From NCBI GenBank assembly GCA_039029395.1, contig JBCCGG010000014.1, positions 48,622 to 112,621 of the forward strand: a stretch of DNA of 64,000 bases. Direction: 5' to 3'. Under the pieces are notes generated by a model that saw nothing but the letters and a program-made list of their open reading frames with translations, was not told the DNA's origin and made no database searches. Positions within the stretch are counted from its first letter, which is position 1. Each line of letters starts with the position of its first letter. The position numbers and the translations under genes were made by a program. Of the stretch, positions 19,634 to 61,370 are shown piece by piece. The stretch comes from Pseudomonadota bacterium. GTDB lineage: Bacteria > Pseudomonadota > Alphaproteobacteria > Kiloniellales > JAKSDN01.

Positions 19634-19649
19634 TGTGAACCATCTCACA
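19634..19649. promoter_or_regulatory. CRP-type box TGTGA-ACCATC-TCACA (perfect consensus)
   Basis: Intergenic; 21 nt before TAAAGC (-10-like) and upstream of the small ORF at 19712. Confidence 0.8.
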
Positions 19650-19711
19650 GCCCGACCCAACCGGCGGTGCTAAAGCCCCGCGCCATGAACTTTGCTTTTG
19701 AGGATCGGATC

Positions 19712-19867
19712 ATGGTGTCGGCAAAGGCGGCGCAACGTCTTGCGGTCGGACTCGGCCTGGCGTTCGGCCTTCTGTTCTGTCTCAGCCTCGAGGCCTTCGG
19801 CGCGGCGCCGAAGCCGACACATTGCTGCCCCAATTGCATGCTTTGCTCGACCGCATTCATTCCGTAA
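19712..19867 (+). CDS. Small secreted/membrane-anchored Cys-rich peptide (51 aa)
   Basis: MVSAKAAQRLAVGLGLAFGLLFCLSLEAFGAAPKPTHCCPNCMLCSTAFIP; GAGGA RBS, CRP box upstream, terminator-like hairpin downstream. Confidence 0.65.
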   Translation: MVSAKAAQRLAVGLGLAFGLLFCLSLEAFGAAPKPTHCCPNCMLCSTAFIP

Positions 19868-19941: not shown

Positions 19942-20643
19942 ATGACCACGAATTTGCTCGCCAGATCGCTCGACGGCATCACGCTGCTCGACCAGATCCC
20001 GCCTGCCGATCTCAACCGCCTGTCGGAGCGCTGCAAATGGCAGCACTACGAGCAAGGCATGCAGATCCTCGGCCACATGGATCGTTCGGAGGGAATCTGC
20101 TTCGTCGTTCAGGGCAAGGCCCGGGTGGTGATCTACTCGGTCTCCGGCAAATCTGTCACCTTCCGGGACATCGCCGCCGGCGACATGTTCGGTGAGCTCT
20201 CGGCGATCGACGGCCAGGAGCGCTCGGCCAGCGTCGAAGCGCTCGAGCCCTGCACGATCGCCACCCTATCACCTGAGTTGTTCAGGGAGGTGCTGCAGAT
20301 CTATCCGGCGGTCTCGGCCGCTTTGCTGCAGCGCTTGACCGCCCAGGTGCGCCATCTAACCGAGCGGGTCTTCGAGTTCAGTACATTGGCGGTCAAGAAC
20401 CGGATTCACGCCGAGCTTTTGCGTCTGGCCCGCAAGACGCCCCACGACAACGGTCAGGCCTGGATCTCGCCAGCGCCGACTCACGCGGAGATCGCCAGCC
20501 GAATCTCAACCCACCGGGAGGCCGTGACCCGCGAGCTCAACCATCTAGCGCACTCCGGCCTGATTGAACGGAAAGATGGCAAGCTGTTGATATTAAACGT
20601 TTCTCAGCTCTCAAAGCTGGTCCAGGAAGTGACCGGCCACTGA
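19942..20643 (+). CDS. Crp/Fnr family transcriptional regulator (CRP-like, paralog 1)
   Basis: cNMP pocket FGELSAIDGQERSAS; HTH THAEIASRISTHREAVTR; no FNR Cys cluster. Confidence 0.92.
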   Translation: MTTNLLARSLDGITLLDQIPPADLNRLSERCKWQHYEQGMQILGHMDRSEGICFVVQGKARVVIYSVSGKSVTFRDIAAGDMFGELSAIDGQERSASVEALEPCTIATLSPELFREVLQIYPAVSAALLQRLTAQVRHLTERVFEFSTLAVKNRIHAELLRLARKTPHDNGQAWISPAPTHAEIASRISTHREAVTRELNHLAHSGLIERKDGKLLILNVSQLSKLVQEVTGH

Positions 20644-20685: not shown

Positions 20686-20701
20686 TGTGAATATTCTCAC
20701 A
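20686..20701. promoter_or_regulatory. CRP-type box TGTGA-ATATTC-TCACA (perfect consensus)
   Basis: Intergenic, 42 nt after the crp stop; 21 nt before CAAATT (-10-like); upstream of the small ORF at 20789. Confidence 0.8.
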
Positions 20702-20788: not shown

Positions 20789-21031
20789 ATGTCTAAAGCA
20801 CCCGCCGCGGAACGCCCGAACAACCGCGGCATCGGCACACAGGACGTTCTCTCCGCCTGGATGATCTACCTGGTCTTCCTCGGCGCCCTGATCCTGCTGT
20901 CGACGCTCTACCTGCAGAACGACCGTGAAGAGGGCCTCTACACCGACGGCTCATCGCCGGATCTGGCCCTACAGCTGAATCAGGGCCATTGGTCGCGGCC
21001 GGTGATCGGCAACGCCACTGGCGGCGTATGA
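20789..21031 (+). CDS. Small single-pass membrane protein (80 aa)
   Basis: MSKAPAAERPNNRGIGTQDVLSAWMIYLVFLGALILLSTLYLQ...; GGAG RBS. Confidence 0.7.
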   Translation: MSKAPAAERPNNRGIGTQDVLSAWMIYLVFLGALILLSTLYLQNDREEGLYTDGSSPDLALQLNQGHWSRPVIGNATGGV

Positions 21032-21076: not shown

Positions 21077-22360
21077 ATGGGCGGTAAGAATACTGGGCGT
21101 GACGCACAGTTGGTCGACCGGGGCGTCCCAGCGGCGCCGATCGAGCGTTTCGCGCCGAGAGTCATGGTGCTGCCGTTCATCGACCTGAGCCTGGCGCCGG
21201 ATCCGATGCACATCGCCGACGGCTTGACGATAGACGTCACCACCGAGCTTGCCAGATTTCCCAACCTGCGCGTGCTCTCGCTCAACACGGCGCTGACCTA
21301 CAAGGGTTGGCCCGTGCCGCCCCAGCGGCTGCACGATGCCCTGGGCGCGCGCTATCTGCTGGAAGGCAGTGTCGAGCTGAGCAGCGACCGCTTGGTCGTA
21401 ACGGTTCAGCTGATCCGGGCCGCCGCAGATGAGGAGCTTTGGGCCGAGCGCTTCGAGCGGCTCGGCGCCTTCAGCCTGGACGACTATGACGACCTGATTT
21501 GCCAGATCGTCGCCGGCATGGATCGCCACATCGCTCAGGTTGAAACCGAGGGCGCGCTTCACAAGCGGCCCAGCGAGGTCAACGCTTACGAGGCCTATCA
21601 GCGCGCGATTCACAGCTTTTCGCACAACACAAAGGAGGAGCTTCAGGCCGCGCTCGACCTCTTCAGGAAGGTTACCGAGCTGGAGCCGGGCTTCGCCCGA
21701 GCCTGGGGCTATCTGGCCTACACCACGATCCGCGGTGTCACCTACGGCTGGATCGAGCCCGCCGCCATGGACCAGGCCCAAGATTGGGTGCGCCGGGCCC
21801 TGGAGCTTGATCCGACCGACTACTACAACATCTGGGACCTGGCTTTCCTGCATCAGAACTGCGGCCGCTTCGTCCAGGCCGAGCGGGCCTACCAGAGGGC
21901 ATGGCGGCTCAATCCCAACGACGCCGAGCTCTTGGCCGAGATGGCGGAGTTCTCGATCTGCAACGGCACGCCGAAATTGGCGATCGATCAAATGAGGCGG
22001 GCCATCGAGATCGCCCAGGATTACCCGCGTTGGTACGACTGGACCTTGGGCCATGCTTACTTCGCGAGCGGCGACTACGGGCGCGCGGTGGCGCGTCTGG
22101 AGCGGGACCCGGCACTGCCTTGCCATGCACGCCTGATCTTGGCCGCCGCGCTGGTCCATCTAGGCGAGCCGGAGCGGGCGCGCGCGATCGTCGGCCAGGT
22201 GCTCCAGGAGGAGCCGCGCACCTCGGTCGAAGGGCTGCGGCAAACAGATCGCCGCAGGCGGCCACAAGACCGCGCCCATTGGCTCAACGCCCTGCGCGCC
22301 GCCGGTGTGCCGGAACGCCCAGCGGGGGCAAGGCCCAACGTGGCGGCGGAAGAGGTTTGA
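21077..22360 (+). CDS. TolB-like + TPR protein without N-terminal effector domain
   Basis: VMVLPFIDLS..ADGLT.D.TTELARF, RYLLEGSV, AYEAYQR, TPR repeats; similar to the C-terminal part of the next gene. Confidence 0.85.
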   Translation: MGGKNTGRDAQLVDRGVPAAPIERFAPRVMVLPFIDLSLAPDPMHIADGLTIDVTTELARFPNLRVLSLNTALTYKGWPVPPQRLHDALGARYLLEGSVELSSDRLVVTVQLIRAAADEELWAERFERLGAFSLDDYDDLICQIVAGMDRHIAQVETEGALHKRPSEVNAYEAYQRAIHSFSHNTKEELQAALDLFRKVTELEPGFARAWGYLAYTTIRGVTYGWIEPAAMDQAQDWVRRALELDPTDYYNIWDLAFLHQNCGRFVQAERAYQRAWRLNPNDAELLAEMAEFSICNGTPKLAIDQMRRAIEIAQDYPRWYDWTLGHAYFASGDYGRAVARLERDPALPCHARLILAAALVHLGEPERARAIVGQVLQEEPRTSVEGLRQTDRRRRPQDRAHWLNALRAAGVPERPAGARPNVAAEEV

Positions 22361-22572
22361 GCCGCTGCAGAATGTTTCAACTAGAAATTATTCACCTCAG
22401 CTTGCAACTATATTCGATTGAAAACCCCAAACAATGACCGGTGATTCGCCCAATCTAGGCGCCGCAACGGGGATTGATGCTTTCGAAGCGGTGGGCCTCG
22501 GCTTAACATAAACGCCATTGATCGGCCGGGCCGGGCCGACGCCGGGCCTCGGCGCGAGAAGGAGCGGAAGCG

Positions 22573-24450
22573 TTGCGCGAGCCGGAGCGGGAAAGACGCC
22601 TCGCGGCCATTATGGTTGCCGACGCGGTCGGCTACAGCACCCTGATGAGTCGCGACGAAGAGCGCACTCACGATCAGTTCAAGTACGATCTGGAGAGTGT
22701 GATCAAGCCGACGATCCGCGACTTCCAGGGCGAGGTGGTGAAGACCACCGGCGACGGCATCCTGGCGCTCTTCCCCACCGTGATCCAGGCGGTGCGCTGC
22801 GCCGACCAGGTCCAGCGCAACCTCTGTCGGCCGCACGATGGGGAGTCGCCCGGCGACCACTTGACCTATCGGGTCGGCGTCAATCTGGGCGATATCCTGA
22901 TCGAGCGCGGCGACGTCTATGGCAACGACGTCAATGTCGCGGTGCGTCTCGAGGCGCTCGCCGAGCCCTGCGGCATCATCCTGTCGGGCGCCGCTTTTTG
23001 GAGCATCAAGGATCAAACCGAACTGCAGTTCGAGGAAATGGGTTTCCTGTCCCTCAAGAACATCCCAGAACCCATCGAGGTTTATCGACTGGTGCGCGAC
23101 CGGGACGTGGCCAGCGACGCAAACGCGCTGGCGCCGCCGCCTGACCGGGAGCCGGCCCTGCCGCCCGCCGGGCCCGAGGCCGGCGCACCGAAGTTCAAGC
23201 AGGTTTGGGCAGAAAGCGGCAAGAGTCTGCCGTCGCTCATCGTCCTGCCGTTCGACAACCTGAGCCAGGACCCAGAGCAAGAATACTTCTGCGACGGCCT
23301 GACCAACGACATCACGACCGACCTTTCGAAGTTTGCTAACCTCTTCGTGATCTCGGCCAACACGGCGCTCTCTCTCAAGGGGGCCCACCCGACGCCGGAG
23401 ACGGTGCGCCAGCGCTTCGGGGTCGACTACATGGTCGAAGGCAGCGTGCAGCGCTTCGGCAACCACATCCGCATCAACGCCCAGCTGATCGAGGCCGAAT
23501 CCGGGCACCATGTCTGGGCCGACCGACTGCAGCGCCAGTTCGACGACCTCTTCACCCTGCAGGAGCAAGTCGTGCGCGCGATCATTGCGCCGCTGGCCGC
23601 GCGCCTGGGCATCGCCGAGCGTGAGCGGGCGGCCCACAAGCAGACCGACGACGCTAGCGCTTACGAGGCCTTCCTCAAGGGCCAGTACTTCATGAACCAC
23701 TTCTACGGCATGGACGAAACGAGAAGCACGCTTGCCAGCGCCCGCGCCTGGCTCAATCGGGCGATCGAGCTCGACCCCGACTATGCCCGCGCCTGGGGTT
23801 GGCTGGCCTACACCTACATTCAGGCCTGGCGCCACGGTTGGGAGTCGGAGGCAAACGTCGAGCAAGCTTGCGAGATGGCCAGAAAGGCGGTCAGCCTGAA
23901 ACCCATGGACCACGACACCCACTGGGCGCTGGGCAGCGTCCTCTCCCACGCCGGGCACACCGAGCAGGCCTTGGCGGAATACCAGAAAGCGTTGGAGATC
24001 AACCGCAACGACGCCGATCTCTTCGCCGAGATGGGCGAGATGCTGGTCCACGCCGGCGAGCATCACCGGGCGATCAACCAGCTCAAGTTCGCCATGCAGA
24101 TCAACCCGCACTTTCCCGACTGGTACTGCTCGATTCTCGGTTGGGCCTACTACTTGCTGCGCGACTACGAGGAGGCGATCGCCGAAATCGGCAACATTGT
24201 CAGCCTGTCGGACGACGAGTATTTGATCCTGGCCGCCAGCCATGCCCGCCTGGCCGAGGCCGAGGCGGTTGAGGGCCGCGATGAAGAAGCCGCGCGCTTG
24301 CAGGCCAAAGCGCGTCGCCACATCGAGGGGTTTCTGAAGCGCCGTCCGGACTGGACAGTCGCCAAGCATGGGCGCATCACGATCCTGAAGCGGGACGGCG
24401 ATTTGAGCCACTACCTAGAGGGGCTTCGGCTGGCTGGGCTGCCGGCGTGA
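22573..24450 (+). CDS. Class III adenylate cyclase with TolB-like and TPR domains
   Basis: ADAVGYS and KTTGDG metal Asp residues, RVGVNLGD, GDVYGNDVNVAVRLE; the Lys/Asp pair suggests ATP specificity. Confidence 0.9.
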   Translation: MREPERERRLAAIMVADAVGYSTLMSRDEERTHDQFKYDLESVIKPTIRDFQGEVVKTTGDGILALFPTVIQAVRCADQVQRNLCRPHDGESPGDHLTYRVGVNLGDILIERGDVYGNDVNVAVRLEALAEPCGIILSGAAFWSIKDQTELQFEEMGFLSLKNIPEPIEVYRLVRDRDVASDANALAPPPDREPALPPAGPEAGAPKFKQVWAESGKSLPSLIVLPFDNLSQDPEQEYFCDGLTNDITTDLSKFANLFVISANTALSLKGAHPTPETVRQRFGVDYMVEGSVQRFGNHIRINAQLIEAESGHHVWADRLQRQFDDLFTLQEQVVRAIIAPLAARLGIAERERAAHKQTDDASAYEAFLKGQYFMNHFYGMDETRSTLASARAWLNRAIELDPDYARAWGWLAYTYIQAWRHGWESEANVEQACEMARKAVSLKPMDHDTHWALGSVLSHAGHTEQALAEYQKALEINRNDADLFAEMGEMLVHAGEHHRAINQLKFAMQINPHFPDWYCSILGWAYYLLRDYEEAIAEIGNIVSLSDDEYLILAASHARLAEAEAVEGRDEEAARLQAKARRHIEGFLKRRPDWTVAKHGRITILKRDGDLSHYLEGLRLAGLPA

Positions 24451-46172: not shown

Positions 46173-48031
46173 CGCTGCGCCAAGACCGCCTGAATGGAGT
46201 CGATGGCGCCGAAGGCCGCTTTCAGCATCTCGCGCTGGGTGGCGCCGAGCTTGTCTAGCGAGATCCAGTTGGTTGGCGCCACGCCGGTGCTGGCATCATG
46301 GAGATGCTGGCCCAGGCGAATGTCGTTGAGGTGACGGTAGGCCTCCAAGGCGTCTTGCAAGGGCGCCTCCAGCTTCGGCTCTACCTGGCGCAAGTGCTCC
46401 AGCCGGTCGAAGGTGTTGCTGGAGTCCAGATAGCGGTGTCGAAGCGCCAGGATCCGGGCGAAATCGGTGATCGGCTGAAGGCCCCGCCGCTTGATGTCGA
46501 TCGCCCGGCCGCTCTCGGTCTTGACCGCGCGGATGCGGCCGAACAGGCCGTCGACCGGCGAACGGTTCCGAATTACGCCCTGGGCCAGGTGCCGCAGGAA
46601 ACGGGGATGGTTCAGCAAGGCCTCCACCAGGGCCCGCTTGACCGGCTCGGCCAGGAAACAGGCGCCGTGCACGGCCCTGAGATCGCAGGCGGCGGCGACC
46701 TGCATGACGTGATGGCCGGTCGTCCCCGACAGCCAGTCGTCAAACTGCCGCGGCCAGCGCTCCAGACTATGGCGCCATAGGGGATTGCCGGCCATCATGC
46801 CACCCTGGCAGAGGCGCAAGCCCACTTGGTCCAAATCCTGGTTGACCCGCGCCGCCCAGGTGGCCACCCACCTTTCCACCTCGGATAGGGTGATTTCCGG
46901 CGCTTGGTAGACGAGGGCGTTGTCTTGATCGGTCTTGAGGCTCATTTCGCCCCGGCCTTCGCTGCCAAGGGAAAGCCAGGCCCAGGAGAAGTCGCCATCG
47001 GGCCGCCCCTCGGCCAACGCGGCCTGGCTCAGGGCGATGACCCGGCCGGTCAGCTGGTCGTTGACCAATGTGTTGATGGTGATCAGGTCCTGGGCGCGCA
47101 CGCCGCGCCGATAGAGCTGCAGCAGATGCCGGTCGGCTTCGCGGCGCAGCTCCGCAAGCTGCGCCAGTGCGGTCGCGCGGCCGATCTGTTCCAGTAGCAG
47201 CATGGGGCTGTAGCCGTGGGACCGGGCGATGTCTTTGTGCCGGACCACGCCGAGCAGCGGGCCGTCCGGCCGGGCGCGAACCAGCAGGTGGGAAAGGCCC
47301 TTGGTCGCCATCTCGATCAACCCTTCGAAGAGAGAGTTACGGGCGGTCAGGAGTCCGATTTCGCGGCTCATCACCGACTCGACCGGCGACTCCGGCGGCG
47401 CGCCGGCGGCGAGGATCTTGCCGCGCAGGTCCCGGTCGGTCAGCAAGCCGAGAACCTCACCCTCGGCCATCACCACCAGATGATCGGTGCTGTGTCGGCA
47501 CATCAGCTCGGCCGCGTCCCGCACCGAGAGCTCGGGCCCGCAGCAGGGCGCCGGCCGGTGGATCAGGTCGCTCAGGCGCGTGCCGAAGAGAAACTGGGCG
47601 CCGGAGAGATCGTAAAGAGTGACGTGATGGCGGGTGTAGGCCCGGATGTCGCTTTCGAAAAAGGCCAGCACCCGGGGGTGCTTGTCGCAGAGCCCGTGGA
47701 AGACCTCGGCAGGAATGAGCCCAAGGGTGACCTCGCCGAGCGCCTCGGCCCGATATGGCAAGGGTCCGCCGCGCAGGAGGCCATAGTTGCCGAACATCTT
47801 GCCGACGCCGAAGGTTCGGGTCGTGCCGCCGGGCCCCGCTTCGATCAGGCGCAGCTGGCCGGCCATCACCAAATAGAGGTGGTCGTGGCTCTCGTGGCCC
47901 TGCTCGAGAATCACCGCGCCGTCGGGATAGCTCGCCAAAACGATCTCGCGCGCCAAGGCACCCCGCTCGGACTTGGAGAAGCCCGAGAAGGGTGCCGTGC
48001 GCGCGAGCTGCCCGAGGAGCTCGTGGTCCAC
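46166..48031 (-). CDS. cNMP-binding + CBS + DUF294 nucleotidyltransferase protein
   Basis: N-terminal cNMP-like domain, CBS pair (GLLTDRDLR), LGSEGRGE...TDQDNAL, DIKRRG..PI. Confidence 0.87.
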   Translation of the reverse strand: MDHELLGQLARTAPFSGFSKSERGALAREIVLASYPDGAVILEQGHESHDHLYLVMAGQLRLIEAGPGGTTRTFGVGKMFGNYGLLRGGPLPYRAEALGEVTLGLIPAEVFHGLCDKHPRVLAFFESDIRAYTRHHVTLYDLSGAQFLFGTRLSDLIHRPAPCCGPELSVRDAAELMCRHSTDHLVVMAEGEVLGLLTDRDLRGKILAAGAPPESPVESVMSREIGLLTARNSLFEGLIEMATKGLSHLLVRARPDGPLLGVVRHKDIARSHGYSPMLLLEQIGRATALAQLAELRREADRHLLQLYRRGVRAQDLITINTLVNDQLTGRVIALSQAALAEGRPDGDFSWAWLSLGSEGRGEMSLKTDQDNALVYQAPEITLSEVERWVATWAARVNQDLDQVGLRLCQGGMMAGNPLWRHSLERWPRQFDDWLSGTTGHHVMQVAAACDLRAVHGACFLAEPVKRALVEALLNHPRFLRHLAQGVIRNRSPVDGLFGRIRAVKTESGRAIDIKRRGLQPITDFARILALRHRYLDSSNTFDRLEHLRQVEPKLEAPLQDALEAYRHLNDIRLGQHLHDASTGVAPTNWISLDKLGATQREMLKAAFGAIDSIQAVLAQRY

Positions 48032-57672: not shown

Positions 57673-59100
57673 CTACTTCCCTACCCACGCGATCCTGAGC
57701 AAGTTCGTCGTCCCCGGTGTGCCAAACGGCACCCCAGCCGTCACCACGATCTTCTCGCCAGCCTTGGCGATGCCTTCTTCCAGCGCGATCGCGCAGGCCT
57801 TGTCTGTCATCTCCTGGGTGTTCTTCACGTCGTCCGTGTGCACGCAGTGGGCACCCCACAGCAAAACCAGGCGTTGGGCCACCGCGATCTTGTTGGTGAG
57901 GACAATGACCGGCACGTCGGGCCGTTGGCGCGCGGCGCGCATGGCGGTCGAGCCCGACATGGTGTAGGTCACGATGGCCGCAGCCCCGATTGTCGTGCCC
58001 ACTTGGGCGGCCGCGGTCGAGATCGCGTCGGCGGCGGTCGCTTGGGGCTCGGGATGGAGCGCGTGCAGCAGGCGCCGGTATGAGGGGTCCTGCTCGGTGC
58101 TGGTCACGATGCGGTCCATCATGTCGACCGCCTCGACCGGGTATTGGCCGGCCGCGGTCTCGGCCGAGAGCATGACCGTGTCGGCGCCGTCGTAGACCGC
58201 GGTCGCCACGTCGGAAGCCTCAGCGCGGGTCGGCGCCGGGGCGCTGATCATGGATTCCAGCATCTGGGTCGCCACCACCACCGGCTTGCCGGACAGGCGG
58301 CAGGCGCGGATGATCTCCTTCTGGCGGCCGGGCACCTCCTCGGGCGGCATCTCCACGCCCAGATCGCCGCGCGCCACCATGATCGCATCCGACTGCTCGA
58401 CGATCTGGTCGAGACAGGCGAGCGCGGCGGGCTTCTCGATCTTGCTCATGACCGCGGCGCGCCCGGCGATCAGCCGCTTGGCCTCGGCGATGTCCTCGGG
58501 CCGCTGGACGAAAGAGAGGCCGACCCAGTCGACCCCCAGATCGAGCCCGAAGGCGAGATCGCTCAGGTCCTTATCGGTGAGCGGCGAGATCGGCAGCACG
58601 ACGCCTGGCAGGTTGACCCCCTTGTGGTCGCGCAAGGGGCCGCCGGCGATCACCTCGGTGCGCGCGAAGCCGGGCCCGCAGTCGACCACCTTGAGGCGCA
58701 GCTTGCCGTCGTCGAGCAGCAGGTCGGTGCCCGGCTCGAGCGCCGCGAAGACCTCGGGATGGGGCAAGGGCGCGCGGCTCGAATCGCCCTCGGCCGGGTC
58801 CAGGTCGAGCCGATAGCCGGCGCCGGCCTCGAGCATCACCGTGCCCCGTTTCAAGCTGCCGACCCTTAGCTTAGGGCCCTGCAGGTCCAGGAGCACGCCG
58901 ATCGGCCGGCCGGACTCGCGCTCGAGCGCCCTGATCAGCTCGTAGCGCCCCTTGTGGTCGTCATGTTCGCCGTGGCTGAAGTTGAGCCGGAAAACGTCGG
59001 CCCCGGCCTCGAACAGCGCCTTGATGGTCGCCTGATCCGAGCTGGCCGGGCCCAAGGTCGCGATGATCTTGGCCTTGCGTTGCCGTCTGAGCGTGCTCAA
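57673..59100 (-). CDS. pyk: Pyruvate kinase
   Basis: KIIATLGPAS, FRLNFSHG, DLQGPKLR, KIEK, MVARGDLGVE, ATQMLESM, MLSAETA. Confidence 0.95.
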   Translation of the reverse strand: MSTLRRQRKAKIIATLGPASSDQATIKALFEAGADVFRLNFSHGEHDDHKGRYELIRALERESGRPIGVLLDLQGPKLRVGSLKRGTVMLEAGAGYRLDLDPAEGDSSRAPLPHPEVFAALEPGTDLLLDDGKLRLKVVDCGPGFARTEVIAGGPLRDHKGVNLPGVVLPISPLTDKDLSDLAFGLDLGVDWVGLSFVQRPEDIAEAKRLIAGRAAVMSKIEKPAALACLDQIVEQSDAIMVARGDLGVEMPPEEVPGRQKEIIRACRLSGKPVVVATQMLESMISAPAPTRAEASDVATAVYDGADTVMLSAETAAGQYPVEAVDMMDRIVTSTEQDPSYRRLLHALHPEPQATAADAISTAAAQVGTTIGAAAIVTYTMSGSTAMRAARQRPDVPVIVLTNKIAVAQRLVLLWGAHCVHTDDVKNTQEMTDKACAIALEEGIAKAGEKIVVTAGVPFGTPGTTNLLRIAWVGK

Positions 59101-59119
59101 CCCCCGATTCCCCCCGGTC

Positions 59120-59236
59120 CTAGCGCAAGATCGGATCAGATTTGTTCAATCTGATCCGTGAATCCTCCGCTGCCACAATATGCTAGAGACTGATTCACGG
59201 ATCATATCGCATCGACATGATCCGATCAGGCTCTTG
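59120..59236. repeat. Composite palindromic element (RIME/REP-like): two inverted hairpin units
   Basis: Hairpins CGGATCAGATT-N5-AATCTGATCCG and CGGATCAT-N11-ATGATCCG; inter-unit inverted repeat TGATCCGTGAATC/GATTCACGGATCA; both units start with CTAG. Confidence 0.7.
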
Positions 59237-59312
59237 CCTGCCGAGGGACAAGAATGGGCGCGCGCCGCGGATGGGACAACCAAAAAGCGGCGGGGCGTTG
59301 GCTGGGAAGGCG

Positions 59313-59447
59313 CTAGTAGTCCAGAAGGAAGGGGGTCGCCAGCATCAAGAGGAAGGGGCCGGCCATGATCACGGCGGCCAGGACGACAACCACGTCCAAC
59401 GAGACCATTGCCATTTTTCGACTGAGTGTCGTCAATAGACTCGGCAT
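59313..59447 (-). CDS. Small single-pass membrane protein (44 aa)
   Basis: Manual translation MPSLLTTLSRKMAMVSLDVVVVLAAVIMAGPFLLMLATPFLLDY; GGAGG RBS 8 nt upstream; CRP box upstream. Confidence 0.7.
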   Translation of the reverse strand: MPSLLTTLSRKMAMVSLDVVVVLAAVIMAGPFLLMLATPFLLDY

Positions 59448-59519
59448 CTCAAATCCTCCGACCTGGACCGCCAAAATGATGCGGTTTCAGGTATTTGGCG
59501 CGAATTTGCCGCAAATTTA

Positions 59520-59535
59520 AGTGACGGCCATCACA
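59520..59535. promoter_or_regulatory. CRP-type box (minus strand TGTGA-TGGCCG-TCACT, 9/10)
   Basis: Intergenic, 35 nt after the stop of crp paralog 2 and upstream of the 44-aa ORF. Confidence 0.72.
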
Positions 59536-59570
59536 TATCCTTGAGATCCCGCGAGCACCAAGGCCGCCGC

Positions 59571-60272
59571 TCAGGTCGCCTTCGAGCCCGAGCTGGCCGC
59601 CAGGAAGCCGGTCAGCTTATCCCGGTCCATGAGATATAGATTGCGCCCCTTGCGACGCAGCAGGCCGTCGGCATAGAGCTGGCTGAGCGCGCGGGCCACG
59701 GTCTCCCGGGTCGTGCTAACCCGGCTGGCGATCTCGCGCAGAGGCGGCAGAGGCCGAACCACCCAAAGCCCGTCGACCGCGGCGTCGGGCTGGGCCATGC
59801 GCAAAAGCTCGGCATAGACCCGCTGGGTCGCCGCCAGGGTGCTGAGCTCCATGATGCGCACGTCGCCGGCGCGCACCATTTGGGCGAGACGAAACAGCAC
59901 TTTGAAGGTGACCTCGACCCGCTCCTCGAGCAGGCGATGGAACTCGGCCGCCTGGAGCAGGGCAACGTAGGCCGGCTCGGCCGCCACGGCGCTTGCCGAG
60001 CGAGGCTTGCCGTCGATCGCCGAGAGCTCGCCAAAGCAGTCGCCGGCCAAGATCCGGGCGAAAGCGACCTCGCGGCCCGTCAGGCCGGTGTTCACGATAT
60101 GAACCGAGCCCTCGAGGATGAAAAAGACCTCGCGCGCCTCGGAGCCGTACTCCAGGATGCGCTCATTCGCCTTGTAGCGCCGCCAACGGCAGCGCGCCTC
60201 CAGGCGGTCCAAGGTTTCCCGGTCGAGATCGGCAAACAGCTCGATCTGCGCCAGCGACTTGGTCTCCGTCAC
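59571..60272 (-). CDS. Crp/Fnr family transcriptional regulator (CRP-like, paralog 2)
   Basis: FGELSAIDGKPRSAS pocket; HTH LREIASRVSTTRETVAR; 233 aa, like paralog 1. Confidence 0.92.
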   Translation of the reverse strand: MTETKSLAQIELFADLDRETLDRLEARCRWRRYKANERILEYGSEAREVFFILEGSVHIVNTGLTGREVAFARILAGDCFGELSAIDGKPRSASAVAAEPAYVALLQAAEFHRLLEERVEVTFKVLFRLAQMVRAGDVRIMELSTLAATQRVYAELLRMAQPDAAVDGLWVVRPLPPLREIASRVSTTRETVARALSQLYADGLLRRKGRNLYLMDRDKLTGFLAASSGSKAT

Positions 60273-60344
60273 CGGTCAACTCCTGCTCAAGTGCCTGGTT
60301 GGCAATCTGCGCCAGGTTCTGTTTTCAGCCCCTTGACGCCGAGC

Positions 60345-61370
60345 TTACACCACCTGGAAGCCTTTGGCATAGGGATCGGCGTCATCGATGAAAATGGTGT
60401 TGAAGCCGGTCACCCGCGCCCAGCCCTCGATCGAAGGCACGATGGCCGCGTGATTGCCGACCTTCGCCTCGGCCACGACCCGGCCGTGGAATGTGGAGCC
60501 GATGATCGATTCGTGGATGAAGCTGTCGCCGACCGAAAGCTCGCCACGGGCCGCCAGCTGGGCCATGCGCGCCGAGGTGCCGGTGCCGCAGGGGCTGCGG
60601 TCGATCGCCTTGTCGCCGTAAAACACGGCATTGCGGGCGTGGGCCCCGCTGCCCTCGCTCGGCTTGCCGGTCCACATGACATGGCTGACGCCGCGTATCG
60701 CCGGATTGTCCGGGTGCACCACCTCAACCGCGTCGTTGATAATGGGGCGCAGGGTGAGCGAGAGGCGCAGAATGTCGCCGGCCGAATGGTGCTCGAGCCC
60801 GCGAAAGTTCTCTTGAGGCTCGATGATGGCGTAGTAGTTGCCGCCATAGGAGACGTCGAGCTTCAAGGGACCTAGCTCCGGACAGGTGACCTCGACCCCC
60901 TCGAGCGCCAGATAGGCCGGCACGTTGGTGAGGCGCACGGACTCGACCTTGCCGTTTGTCATGGTGTAGGCCGCCTCGACCAGCCCGGCCGGGGTGTCGA
61001 GCATCAAGCGCCCGGGTTCGCGCGGCTGCACCAGGCCGCGTTCCAGGGCGAAGGTCACGGTGCCGATCGTGCCGTGGCCGCACATGGGCAGGCAGCCGCT
61101 GGTCTCGATATAGAGCACTCCGATATCGCAGTCCGGCCGGGTCGGCGGATAGAGGATCGAGCCGGACATCATGTCGTGGCCGCGCGGCTCGAACATCAGG
61201 CCGGTGCGGATCCAATCGTAGCGCTCGAGGAAATCCAGGCGCCGTTCGCTCATGGTGGCGCCCTCCAGCGGCGGCCCGCCGGCGGTCACCAGGCGCACCG
61301 GATTGCCACAGGTATGGCCGTCGATGCAGAAGAAGGTGTTGGGCTTGAGCGTAGTCTGGGCGACAGTCAT
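60345..61370 (-). CDS. 4-hydroxyproline epimerase (proline racemase family)
   Basis: DGHTCGNPVR, EPRGHDMMSG, catalytic PMCGH and DRSPCGTG. Confidence 0.9.
   Translation of the reverse strand: MTVAQTTLKPNTFFCIDGHTCGNPVRLVTAGGPPLEGATMSERRLDFLERYDWIRTGLMFEPRGHDMMSGSILYPPTRPDCDIGVLYIETSGCLPMCGHGTIGTVTFALERGLVQPREPGRLMLDTPAGLVEAAYTMTNGKVESVRLTNVPAYLALEGVEVTCPELGPLKLDVSYGGNYYAIIEPQENFRGLEHHSAGDILRLSLTLRPIINDAVEVVHPDNPAIRGVSHVMWTGKPSEGSGAHARNAVFYGDKAIDRSPCGTGTSARMAQLAARGELSVGDSFIHESIIGSTFHGRVVAEAKVGNHAAIVPSIEGWARVTGFNTIFIDDADPYAKGFQVV

Follow-up and report, generated by a model that had tools for sequence, protein, structure and literature searches.

We analyzed a 64-kb stretch of an alphaproteobacterial contig (the window, G000:C14:48622-112621, from a metagenome-assembled genome of 6.16 Mb with 64.6% GC in 96 contigs) in which crp2, a gene for a regulator related to the cyclic AMP (cAMP) receptor protein (CRP, or CAP), is followed on the same strand by a CRP-type DNA site and by a short open reading frame (ORF) predicted to encode a membrane microprotein. 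The full stretch was present in one sequencing run only, a marine metagenome. We refer to the family of this small ORF as famA and to a second small-ORF family, found behind the paralogous regulator gene crp1, as famB; both names were coined here. The crp2 locus is laid out as follows.

59571 to 60272, minus strand: crp2, gene for a 233-amino-acid (aa) CRP-clade regulator, with a GTG start and GGAG 7 to 8 nucleotides (nt) upstream.
59520 to 59535, minus strand: CRP-type box TGTGATGGCCGTCACT, which matches 9 of the 10 specified bases and lies 35 nt past the stop of crp2; its start is 88 nt from the ATG of the microprotein.
59493 to 59498, minus strand: −10-like hexamer CCAAAT, 21 nt past the box; transcription would start near 59486.
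59455 to 59459, minus strand: GGAGG ribosome-binding site; the ATG at 59447 follows after 7 nt.
59313 to 59447, minus strand: microprotein gene of family famA; by the ORF list, the family profile, and AlphaFold, the 44-aa product (MPSLL...PFLLDY) has a single transmembrane helix.

The original prediction, made from the letters alone, had described a 233-aa Crp with the FGELSAIDGKPRSAS region and a RETVAR helix, a box 35 nt after its stop, and a 44-aa ORF with a single transmembrane segment and a GGAGG ribosome-binding site. All of these are present at the positions listed. The CAAAT that it placed 21 to 22 nt past the box, as at a second box at 20686, was likewise found, at 22 nt from the 59520 box and at 21 nt from the 20686 box.

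Crp2 has the domain pair of the CRP clade, with an N-terminal cNMP_binding domain (PF00027, E value of 3.5e-20; 72 bits, cutoff of 27.5) and a C-terminal HTH_Crp_2 domain (PF13545, 1.3e-11; 44.7 bits, cutoff of 27). Its sequence contains FGELSAIDGKPRSAS and TTRETVARAL and has a G-E-L ... R-S-A cassette, which we take to be the phosphate-binding signature. Its closest relatives of solved structure are Vfr and Escherichia coli CAP, with Sinorhizobium meliloti Clr (PDB 7pza) more distant, and its named relatives come from metagenome-assembled genomes of Kiloniellales, Rhodospirillales, and Dongiaceae and from Dongia. The F-helix follows the pattern R-E-x-x-x-R/K rather than the E-x-x-S-R of FNR/FixK types. 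In CAP, the first, second, and last residues of the F-helix RETVGR are described as reading the TGTGA half-site (PMC10187061); the RETVAR helix of Crp2 retains all three. Seven clear Crp/Fnr regulators were found in the genome, three of them with CAP-like F-helices (REAVTR in Crp1, RETVAR in Crp2, and RESVNK in a third paralogue on contig C19), and the remaining four paralogues carry the FNR/FixK-type E-x-x-S-R helix (E-T-x-S-R). Alignment of Crp1 with Crp2, which the original prediction had called paralogous, gave 38% identity over 225 residues. Where the C-helix of Vfr (...RKTTRKV...) has two Thr after a Lys, Crp2 has Gly-Asp in the alignment; in CAP the corresponding positions contact the adenine. 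Because Gly-Asp replaces the Thr-Thr of Vfr, the effector of Crp2 could be either cAMP or cyclic GMP (cGMP). Two alphaproteobacterial relatives are reported to respond to cGMP (PMC10187061).

Comparative evidence argues that the small ORF is a real, conserved gene. A profile search recovered famA at 20 places in 14 of 41 related genomes (own genome included in both counts; related genomes are not independent samples), with the window ORF itself scoring an E value of 1.3e-16. Behind Crp2 homologues, a box was found within 400 nt of the stop at 8 of 20 loci, again including our own, and a 38-aa ORF that aligns with the window ORF follows the box in 5 of the 7 others. In all 12 copies examined from related genomes, the famA frame is open at constant length (most members are 38 aa), and the other frames carry stops. 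Pairwise differences among these 12 copies number 1126, 757, and 1379 at codon positions 1, 2, and 3, respectively, and the GC content at third codon positions (GC3) of the window ORF is 0.80 in frame versus 0.57 and 0.36 out of frame. Purine-rich GGAG or GGAA motifs are kept at the ribosome-binding position in the relatives. Across 44 sequences, P31 and P39 are invariant and D18, F32, and F40 are conserved in at least 90%. The hallmarks of the family (about 38 aa, one helix, an Asp near its N-terminal end, and P-F ... P-F in the C-terminal half) are all present in the window ORF. AlphaFold models the 44-aa product as a single helix spanning residues 4 to 41 (mean predicted local distance difference test score, 91.7). 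Because basic residues precede the helix, the N terminus is probably cytoplasmic.

An exhaustive HMMER search for famA among 1.84 billion protein representatives returned 51 matches at E ≤ 1e-3, of which 8 reach E ≤ 1e-10. Almost all of them are about 38 aa long or are longer calls in which the match lies at the C-terminal end; two long multi-stretch matches resemble hydrophobic repeats. A word-indexed protein search gave 30 clusters, which lack any Pfam domain and whose sole name is "hypothetical protein," and a protein identical to the product of the 44-aa ORF is already on record in a protein collection (P0027). The suggestion that such ORFs had been missed by annotation is thus correct only in part, since members appear in some sources as hypothetical proteins. 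No Pfam or NCBIfam model matched famA at E ≤ 0.1 apart from OppC_N, which stayed below threshold (16 bits, cutoff of 23.9), no PDB chain matched the famA profile even at E ≤ 10, and the closest clusters in the ESM Atlas are all without a name. When 401 genomes of the class were sampled, 8 (own genome included) had famA. Of the 9 foreign places, 3 belong to other alphaproteobacterial families and show a perfect box at an equivalent distance; the rest are weak matches, one of them clearly false. Among 80 loci found with Crp2 alone as the query, famA was present in only three (L065, L068, and L069), each of which has a box. We also considered famA as a leader peptide for pyruvate kinase and ruled this out, since the downstream genes differ among relatives or are convergent.

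The box is kept with the gene. Within 400 nt upstream, 17 of the 20 famA places have a box with at most one mismatch, and its distance is almost constant: it starts 87 to 91 nt before the profile match in 12 of the 17, and the remaining five have matches that begin inside the profile. At three famA places, another box lies exactly 32 bp upstream of the first. With a weight matrix derived from 14 famA-linked boxes in other genomes, the window site ranked second in the 6.16-Mb genome (20.4 bits). We aligned 15 nonredundant famA promoters on the box and counted hexamers by eye. The consensus reads TGTGAyGGCCGTCACTT, 18 variable bases, and gc-CCAnAT, and a hexamer of the form C[C/T]A-N-[A/G]-T stands in the same register, 20 to 21 nt past the box, in 13 of the 15; the CAAAT noticed in the original prediction is part of this conserved −10-like element. 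These features, their conservation, and their fixed spacing are direct observations. Within the box, the half-sites are conserved and the 6-nt spacer varies freely, often being nonpalindromic, which therefore points to a protein site rather than an RNA hairpin.

In a class II CRP promoter, the box is centered at −41.5. Because the hexamer lies 20 to 21 nt past the box and the start would fall about 7 nt after the hexamer, the famA box would be centered at about −41.5, the geometry that had been proposed. A sigma-70 consensus scan of both strands from 59000 to 60400 found no −35/−10 pair, as expected for a class II promoter. The box-hexamer spacing thus appears to fit a class II CRP-activated promoter.

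The regulator gene and famA also tend to occur together. At 9 of the 20 places, famA lies directly behind a Crp2-clade gene on the same strand, and at a tenth (G033) famA and a Crp2-like gene both lie at contig ends. We built a maximum-likelihood tree of 36 Crp proteins from the examined loci, with a midpoint root for drawing only; duplicates (L004, L054, L055, L056, L058, and L060) were left out, as was L046, whose estimated start gave a stop, and row L048 is from genome G021, which is unpublished. All nine famA-linked Crps fell within the Crp2 clade (support, 100/100), whose 19 rows comprise 9 with box and famA, 9 without a box, and 1 with a box only, and all five rows with box and famB fell within the Crp1 clade (100/100). 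The idea of a recurring crp/box/small-membrane-ORF module, as opposed to a coincidence, is supported by this distribution. In a third Crp clade (100/99), a box lies 11 to 22 nt after the stop in three of four rows, with no membrane ORF. In this sister clade, we also observed that 150 to 250 nt without a plausible ORF follow the box at L055, L057, and L059 (genomes G020, G034, and G028) and that at L055 and L059 this stretch ends in a GC hairpin and a T run; the three stretches are candidates for CRP-driven small RNAs, although they gave no match in Rfam.

Eleven famA copies do not lie behind a crp gene, and 8 of these have the box upstream. Two of the 11 adjoin genes for proteins with a CHASE2 domain plus a cyclase domain (832 and 789 aa); in G009 famA and the cyclase gene are divergent with the box between them, and in G007 they are convergent.

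On these grounds, we estimate a probability of about 0.7 to 0.8 that a nucleotide-loaded CRP-type dimer activates a class II promoter behind crp2 and that the resulting short mRNA encodes a single-pass inner-membrane microprotein. From the sequences we infer that Crp2 binds the box and activates the promoter, and likewise where transcription starts, that the ORF is translated, how its product lies in the membrane, and what partner it might have. Crp2 would act as a cyclic-nucleotide receptor, loaded with cAMP or cGMP. The loaded dimer, most simply Crp2 itself, would bind the box just behind crp2, where it would stand in for a −35 element and recruit RNA polymerase. The resulting short mRNA, which has the GGAGG site and a leader of some 39 nt, would be translated into a 44-aa inner-membrane protein with one helix, a cytoplasmic N terminus, and only 2 to 4 residues outside. 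Regulator gene, site, and microprotein gene would be inherited as one cassette. As to function, we tentatively propose that famA is a membrane-embedded modulator of a protein of the cyclic nucleoside monophosphate (cNMP) pathway, with a CHASE2 receptor cyclase as the most likely partner, a proposal that we hold to be plausible but well short of probable. The conserved Asp and the PF...PF face of the helix would dock onto that larger membrane protein, and through this docking cNMP output could feed back on cNMP synthesis.

Several observations weigh against parts of this interpretation. By number, the box is unremarkable: the genome has 46 boxes with at most one mismatch where a first-order Markov model expects 71, and because the window box has one mismatch it belongs to a class that is not above chance by count. 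By itself, the box at 59520 is not significant; the significance of the famA-linked box comes from its position and its conservation. Three famA copies (L033, L036, and L038, all weak matches) have no box, and 9 of the 19 Crp2-clade genes, one of which is at a contig end, have neither box nor famA behind them. The NCBIfam CRP equivalog NF008732 is not reached by Crp2 (82.4 bits, cutoff of 266), and Crp1 is likewise far below the cutoff; we therefore regard Crp2 as a CRP-like relative and not as an orthologue of E. coli CRP. Crp1 or the third CRP-type paralogue could bind the same box, and since both share the helix type, Crp2 is only the most economical choice for the dimer. Neither the stretch between crp2 and the ORF nor the one after the ORF yielded a terminator, and the 3′ region folds no better than shuffled sequences (z = −0.17); since none was found between the two genes, read-through from crp2 is possible. 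RNA libraries contributed one contig from each of two metatranscriptome runs (60129 to 60300 and 60011 to 60213), both of which fall in the crp2 region alone (bases 60011 to 60300) and may reflect DNA carry-over. Finally, the idea of a cyclase partner comes from two neighborhoods. CHASE2 genes occur in 12 of 14 famA-positive and 17 of 27 famA-negative genomes, so that co-occurrence is uninformative; the two famA-positive genomes without a CHASE2 gene are 86% and 69% complete. Our own genome has CHASE2 cyclases in the regions G000:C2:88657-89697 and G000:C32:68163-69332.

Within the 64-kb window, TGTGA-N6-TCACA with at most one mismatch occurs at exactly three sites (19634, 20686, and 59520), against an expectation of 0.59; three sites were reached in 2 of 100 shuffles. 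All three flank the two crp genes, as the original prediction had stated; beyond the window that statement fails, and the genome-wide boxes are not confined to crp genes. Eight of the 46 are perfect (1.8 expected). With crude gene calls (ORFs no shorter than 70 aa whose GC3 is 0.74 or higher), which leave about 15% of bases uncovered on four contigs that total 449,568 bases, 34 of the 46 boxes and 8 of the 8 perfect ones are intergenic; equally good boxes are thus not scattered over random positions, an outcome that would have counted against the module. That near-consensus boxes fall below the Markov expectation and perfect ones above it is consistent with avoidance of near-consensus sites inside genes. 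The genome carries an ordinary CRP-type regulon, with about 30 other intergenic boxes, and the crp-adjacent sites are part of it. Genes beside boxes include those for hybrid histidine kinases, a redoxin, a heme peroxidase, a molybdopterin oxidoreductase, a calcineurin-like phosphoesterase, and the third crp paralogue itself. The phosphoesterase gene has a one-mismatch box just upstream (G000:C27:61117, outside the window) and might encode a cyclic-nucleotide phosphodiesterase under CRP control.

We scanned the genome for boxes followed within 45 to 150 nt by a Shine-Dalgarno sequence and a hydrophobic ORF of 20 to 110 aa. Four boxes qualified, the three in the window and one on contig C9. At the latter (G000:C9:78105), which lies outside the window, a 52-aa single-helix ORF (MDSYTALWAAT...) begins 71 nt past the perfect box TGTGAGGAGAGTCACA and lies upstream of a redoxin gene; it is apparently the fourth box-driven small membrane ORF of the genome. 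At G000:C1:3803, also outside the window, a one-mismatch box lies 36 nt after a 139-aa ORF, with a CCATCT hexamer at 21 nt and about 150 nt of ORF-less sequence that ends in a hairpin, again a layout of gene, box, and putative short transcript.

The other two boxes of the window lie at the crp1 locus, some of whose features parallel those behind crp2.

19634 to 19649, plus strand: perfect box TGTGAACCATCTCACA, upstream of a small Cys-rich, putatively exported ORF and of crp1.
19942 to 20643, plus strand: crp1, gene for a paralogous 233-aa CRP-type regulator with the F-helix REAVTR.
20686 to 20701, plus strand: perfect box TGTGAATATTCTCACA, 42 nt past the stop of crp1; the ATG of famB is 103 nt from the start of the box.
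20789 to 21031, plus strand: famB small membrane ORF, 80 aa, with the motif DVLSAW and then a hydrophobic helix.

In this cassette, CAAATT lies 21 nt past the box TGTGAATATTCTCACA, and the 80-aa ORF has one hydrophobic helix. The family is recognized by the motif [D/E]-[V/I]-[L/V]-[S/A]-A-W plus the helix. Related ORFs lie behind Crp1-clade genes with the box 86 to 104 nt upstream at L046, L051, L052, and L053, and at L049 as well if an internal Met is the start. At E ≤ 0.01, famB was found in 9 of 41 genomes; the six strong matches are the loci used to build the profile. A comparison with hhalign detected no homology between famA and famB (probability, 0.6%).

A broader hypothesis covers both loci: in this alphaproteobacterial group, the regulator's best site, placed behind its own gene as a "tail promoter," would drive small, interchangeable cargo (famA with Crp2, famB with Crp1, and possibly a small RNA with the sister clade), with famA as a dedicated, membrane-embedded subunit that tunes CHASE2-type receptor cyclases. 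We consider this speculative and, taken as a whole, doubtful. If true, it would make famA the first small-protein modulator of bacterial cAMP or cGMP synthesis.

The likeliest of the other explanations is that famA serves a membrane enzyme or transporter with no part in cNMP turnover, as a small accessory subunit or in its assembly, and is only one output of the CRP regulon. Other boxes do precede redox and sensory genes (redoxin, heme peroxidase, molybdopterin oxidoreductase, and hybrid histidine kinases), and the fourth box-driven small membrane ORF sits upstream of the redoxin gene; on the other side, no conserved neighbor of famA was seen except crp and, twice, cyclases, and the famA profile has no PDB match even at E ≤ 10. 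We judge this unlikely, though worth keeping in view.

A second possibility is that the box-driven short transcript acts mainly as a regulatory or dual-function RNA, with the ORF secondary. The sister Crp clade, in which three of four genes are followed by a box and then by 150 to 250 nt without a plausible membrane ORF, two of these stretches ending in a GC hairpin and T run, favors it, as does the box with its CCATCT hexamer at G000:C1:3803, which precedes a short ORF-less stretch ending in a hairpin. Against it, the famA protein sequence is conserved at a constant 38 aa with an excess of third-position changes and with conserved ribosome-binding sites, no Rfam family matched the intergenic regions, and the leader would be only about 39 nt. 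An RNA function is accordingly improbable for famA.

Slightly less likely is a membrane-damaging hydrophobic peptide, similar to a type I toxin, induced by cNMP to slow growth or drive dormancy. The product is small, with a single hydrophobic helix, and would be under a regulator of a stress or starvation type; moreover, the CRP-type regulator CgrA of Rhodospirillum centenum is described as controlling cyst dormancy (PMC4681086). Against a toxin, the sigma-70 consensus scan of 59000 to 60400 gave no promoter-like site on either strand, so that no antisense gene is indicated; the family is conserved at particular positions (Asp, PF, PF), as would suit a specific contact with another protein better than nonspecific damage to membranes; and there are at most two famA copies per genome, in ordinary chromosomal contexts. 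We give a toxin little credence.

Very improbable, and already contradicted by the comparative data, is the idea that the ORF is spurious and that the palindrome arose by chance or serves as a terminator or operator of crp2. In its favor, one-mismatch boxes are no commoner genome-wide than chance, and the palindrome might fold into a 5-bp hairpin with TTAAATTT after it. Against it, half-sites are conserved around a freely varying, often nonpalindromic spacer, the box-hexamer and box-ATG distances are fixed, the box accompanies famA in 8 of 11 copies without a nearby crp gene, and the T runs after the box are short in relatives.

The class II reading invites comparison with characterized CRP systems. 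Crp2 resembles E. coli CAP/CRP and Pseudomonas Vfr in its domain pair, in having these as its closest solved relatives, in the F-helix R-E-x-V-x-R, in the TGTGA-N6-TCACA site, and in a box at the presumed −35 position; the CAP motif and helix are those given in PMC10187061. Unlike those systems, the regulator here is far below the CRP equivalog cutoff, three CRP-type paralogues share one genome, the strongest conserved target sits directly behind the regulator's own gene, and the C-helix of Crp2 has Gly-Asp where Vfr has Thr-Thr.

The closest precedent is the cGMP receptor CgrA of R. centenum, which is described as protecting a perfect TGTGA-N6-TCACA site upstream of an operon whose last gene is cgrA (PMC4681086). 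Beside the cgrA cluster, the same account places RC1_3784, a single-gene "small open reading frame" of unassigned function with the box TGTGAAGCAGTTCACA close upstream, whose expression is strongly CgrA dependent (60-fold in one passage, 12-fold in another) (PMC4681086). The likeness, an alphaproteobacterial CRP-type regulator with TGTGA-N6-TCACA and an adjoining small ORF, is one of layout and box, and as described there RC1_3784 is divergent from the operon ending in cgrA rather than behind the regulator gene (PMC4681086).

S. meliloti Clr is a looser parallel than CgrA. It is linked genetically to the receptor cyclases CyaD1, CyaD2, and CyaK (CHASE2) and to the adjacent targets smc02177 and smc02178, genes of unassigned function (PMC5498481). 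Here, similarly, two famA copies adjoin CHASE2 cyclases, and a cyclase and a tetratricopeptide repeat (TPR) protein adjoin crp1. The three Clr targets studied are reported as noncytoplasmic, two with cleavable signal peptides, and are not called small (PMC5498481). Unlike Crp2, Clr carries the F-helix RPKVNR, and its DNA motif is HGTYHC-N4-GRWACA instead of that of CAP (PMC10187061).

Small single-pass membrane proteins are known to modulate larger membrane proteins, as MgrB does PhoQ; KdpF and AcrZ are further examples. famA would resemble them in size, in its single helix, and in induction by a pathway on which it possibly feeds back. It differs in that it has no sequence relation to them and in that its mode of action is a hypothesis. 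A search of the full-text literature found no description of a crp-linked microprotein, although journals beyond those covered could hold one.

Soil and marine Alphaproteobacteria encode dozens of adenylate and guanylate cyclases, and the targets of most are largely obscure. As what appears to be the best conserved target of a CRP-type regulator, and one whose gene stays with the regulator gene or with those of receptor cyclases, this microprotein would offer a concrete, testable handle on the pathway. famA adds a 38-aa sequence family, below the usual annotation size, whose promoter is recognizable from sequence alone, and it could serve as a marker of CRP-type regulons in uncultured lineages. 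Even if its function turns out to be mundane, the locus is a clean case of comparative genomics validating a small ORF.

We also noted several features elsewhere in the window. Right after the Crp1 cassette, at 21077 to 24450, lie a gene for a 427-aa TPR protein and then a 625-aa ORF with an adenylate/guanylate cyclase domain; there are 43 matches to this domain across the genome. Between the two crp loci, at about 47678 to 47932 on the minus strand, a further cyclic-nucleotide-binding domain lies within a 622-aa open frame. Just upstream of crp1, a 51-aa ORF (19712 to 19867, plus strand) begins 78 nt past the perfect box at 19634 to 19649. Its N terminus resembles a signal peptide, and four cysteines lie toward its C terminus (CC-P-N-C-M-L-C). 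A scan of Pfam and NCBIfam with a 60-aa form that uses an upstream ATG at 19685 gave no match; the 51-aa product could be a small secreted or metal-binding peptide. Finally, between the microprotein ORF and the pyruvate kinase gene lies a dispersed repeat (59119 to 59243), about 125 nt long, that has inverted repeats inside it. Many contigs from two unrelated metagenome runs align to 59101 to 59260, over this repeat region, and further copies of the repeat lie at G000:C7:113984-114108 (83% identity), C11:64146-64262, C22:86790-86833, and C16:1706-1738.

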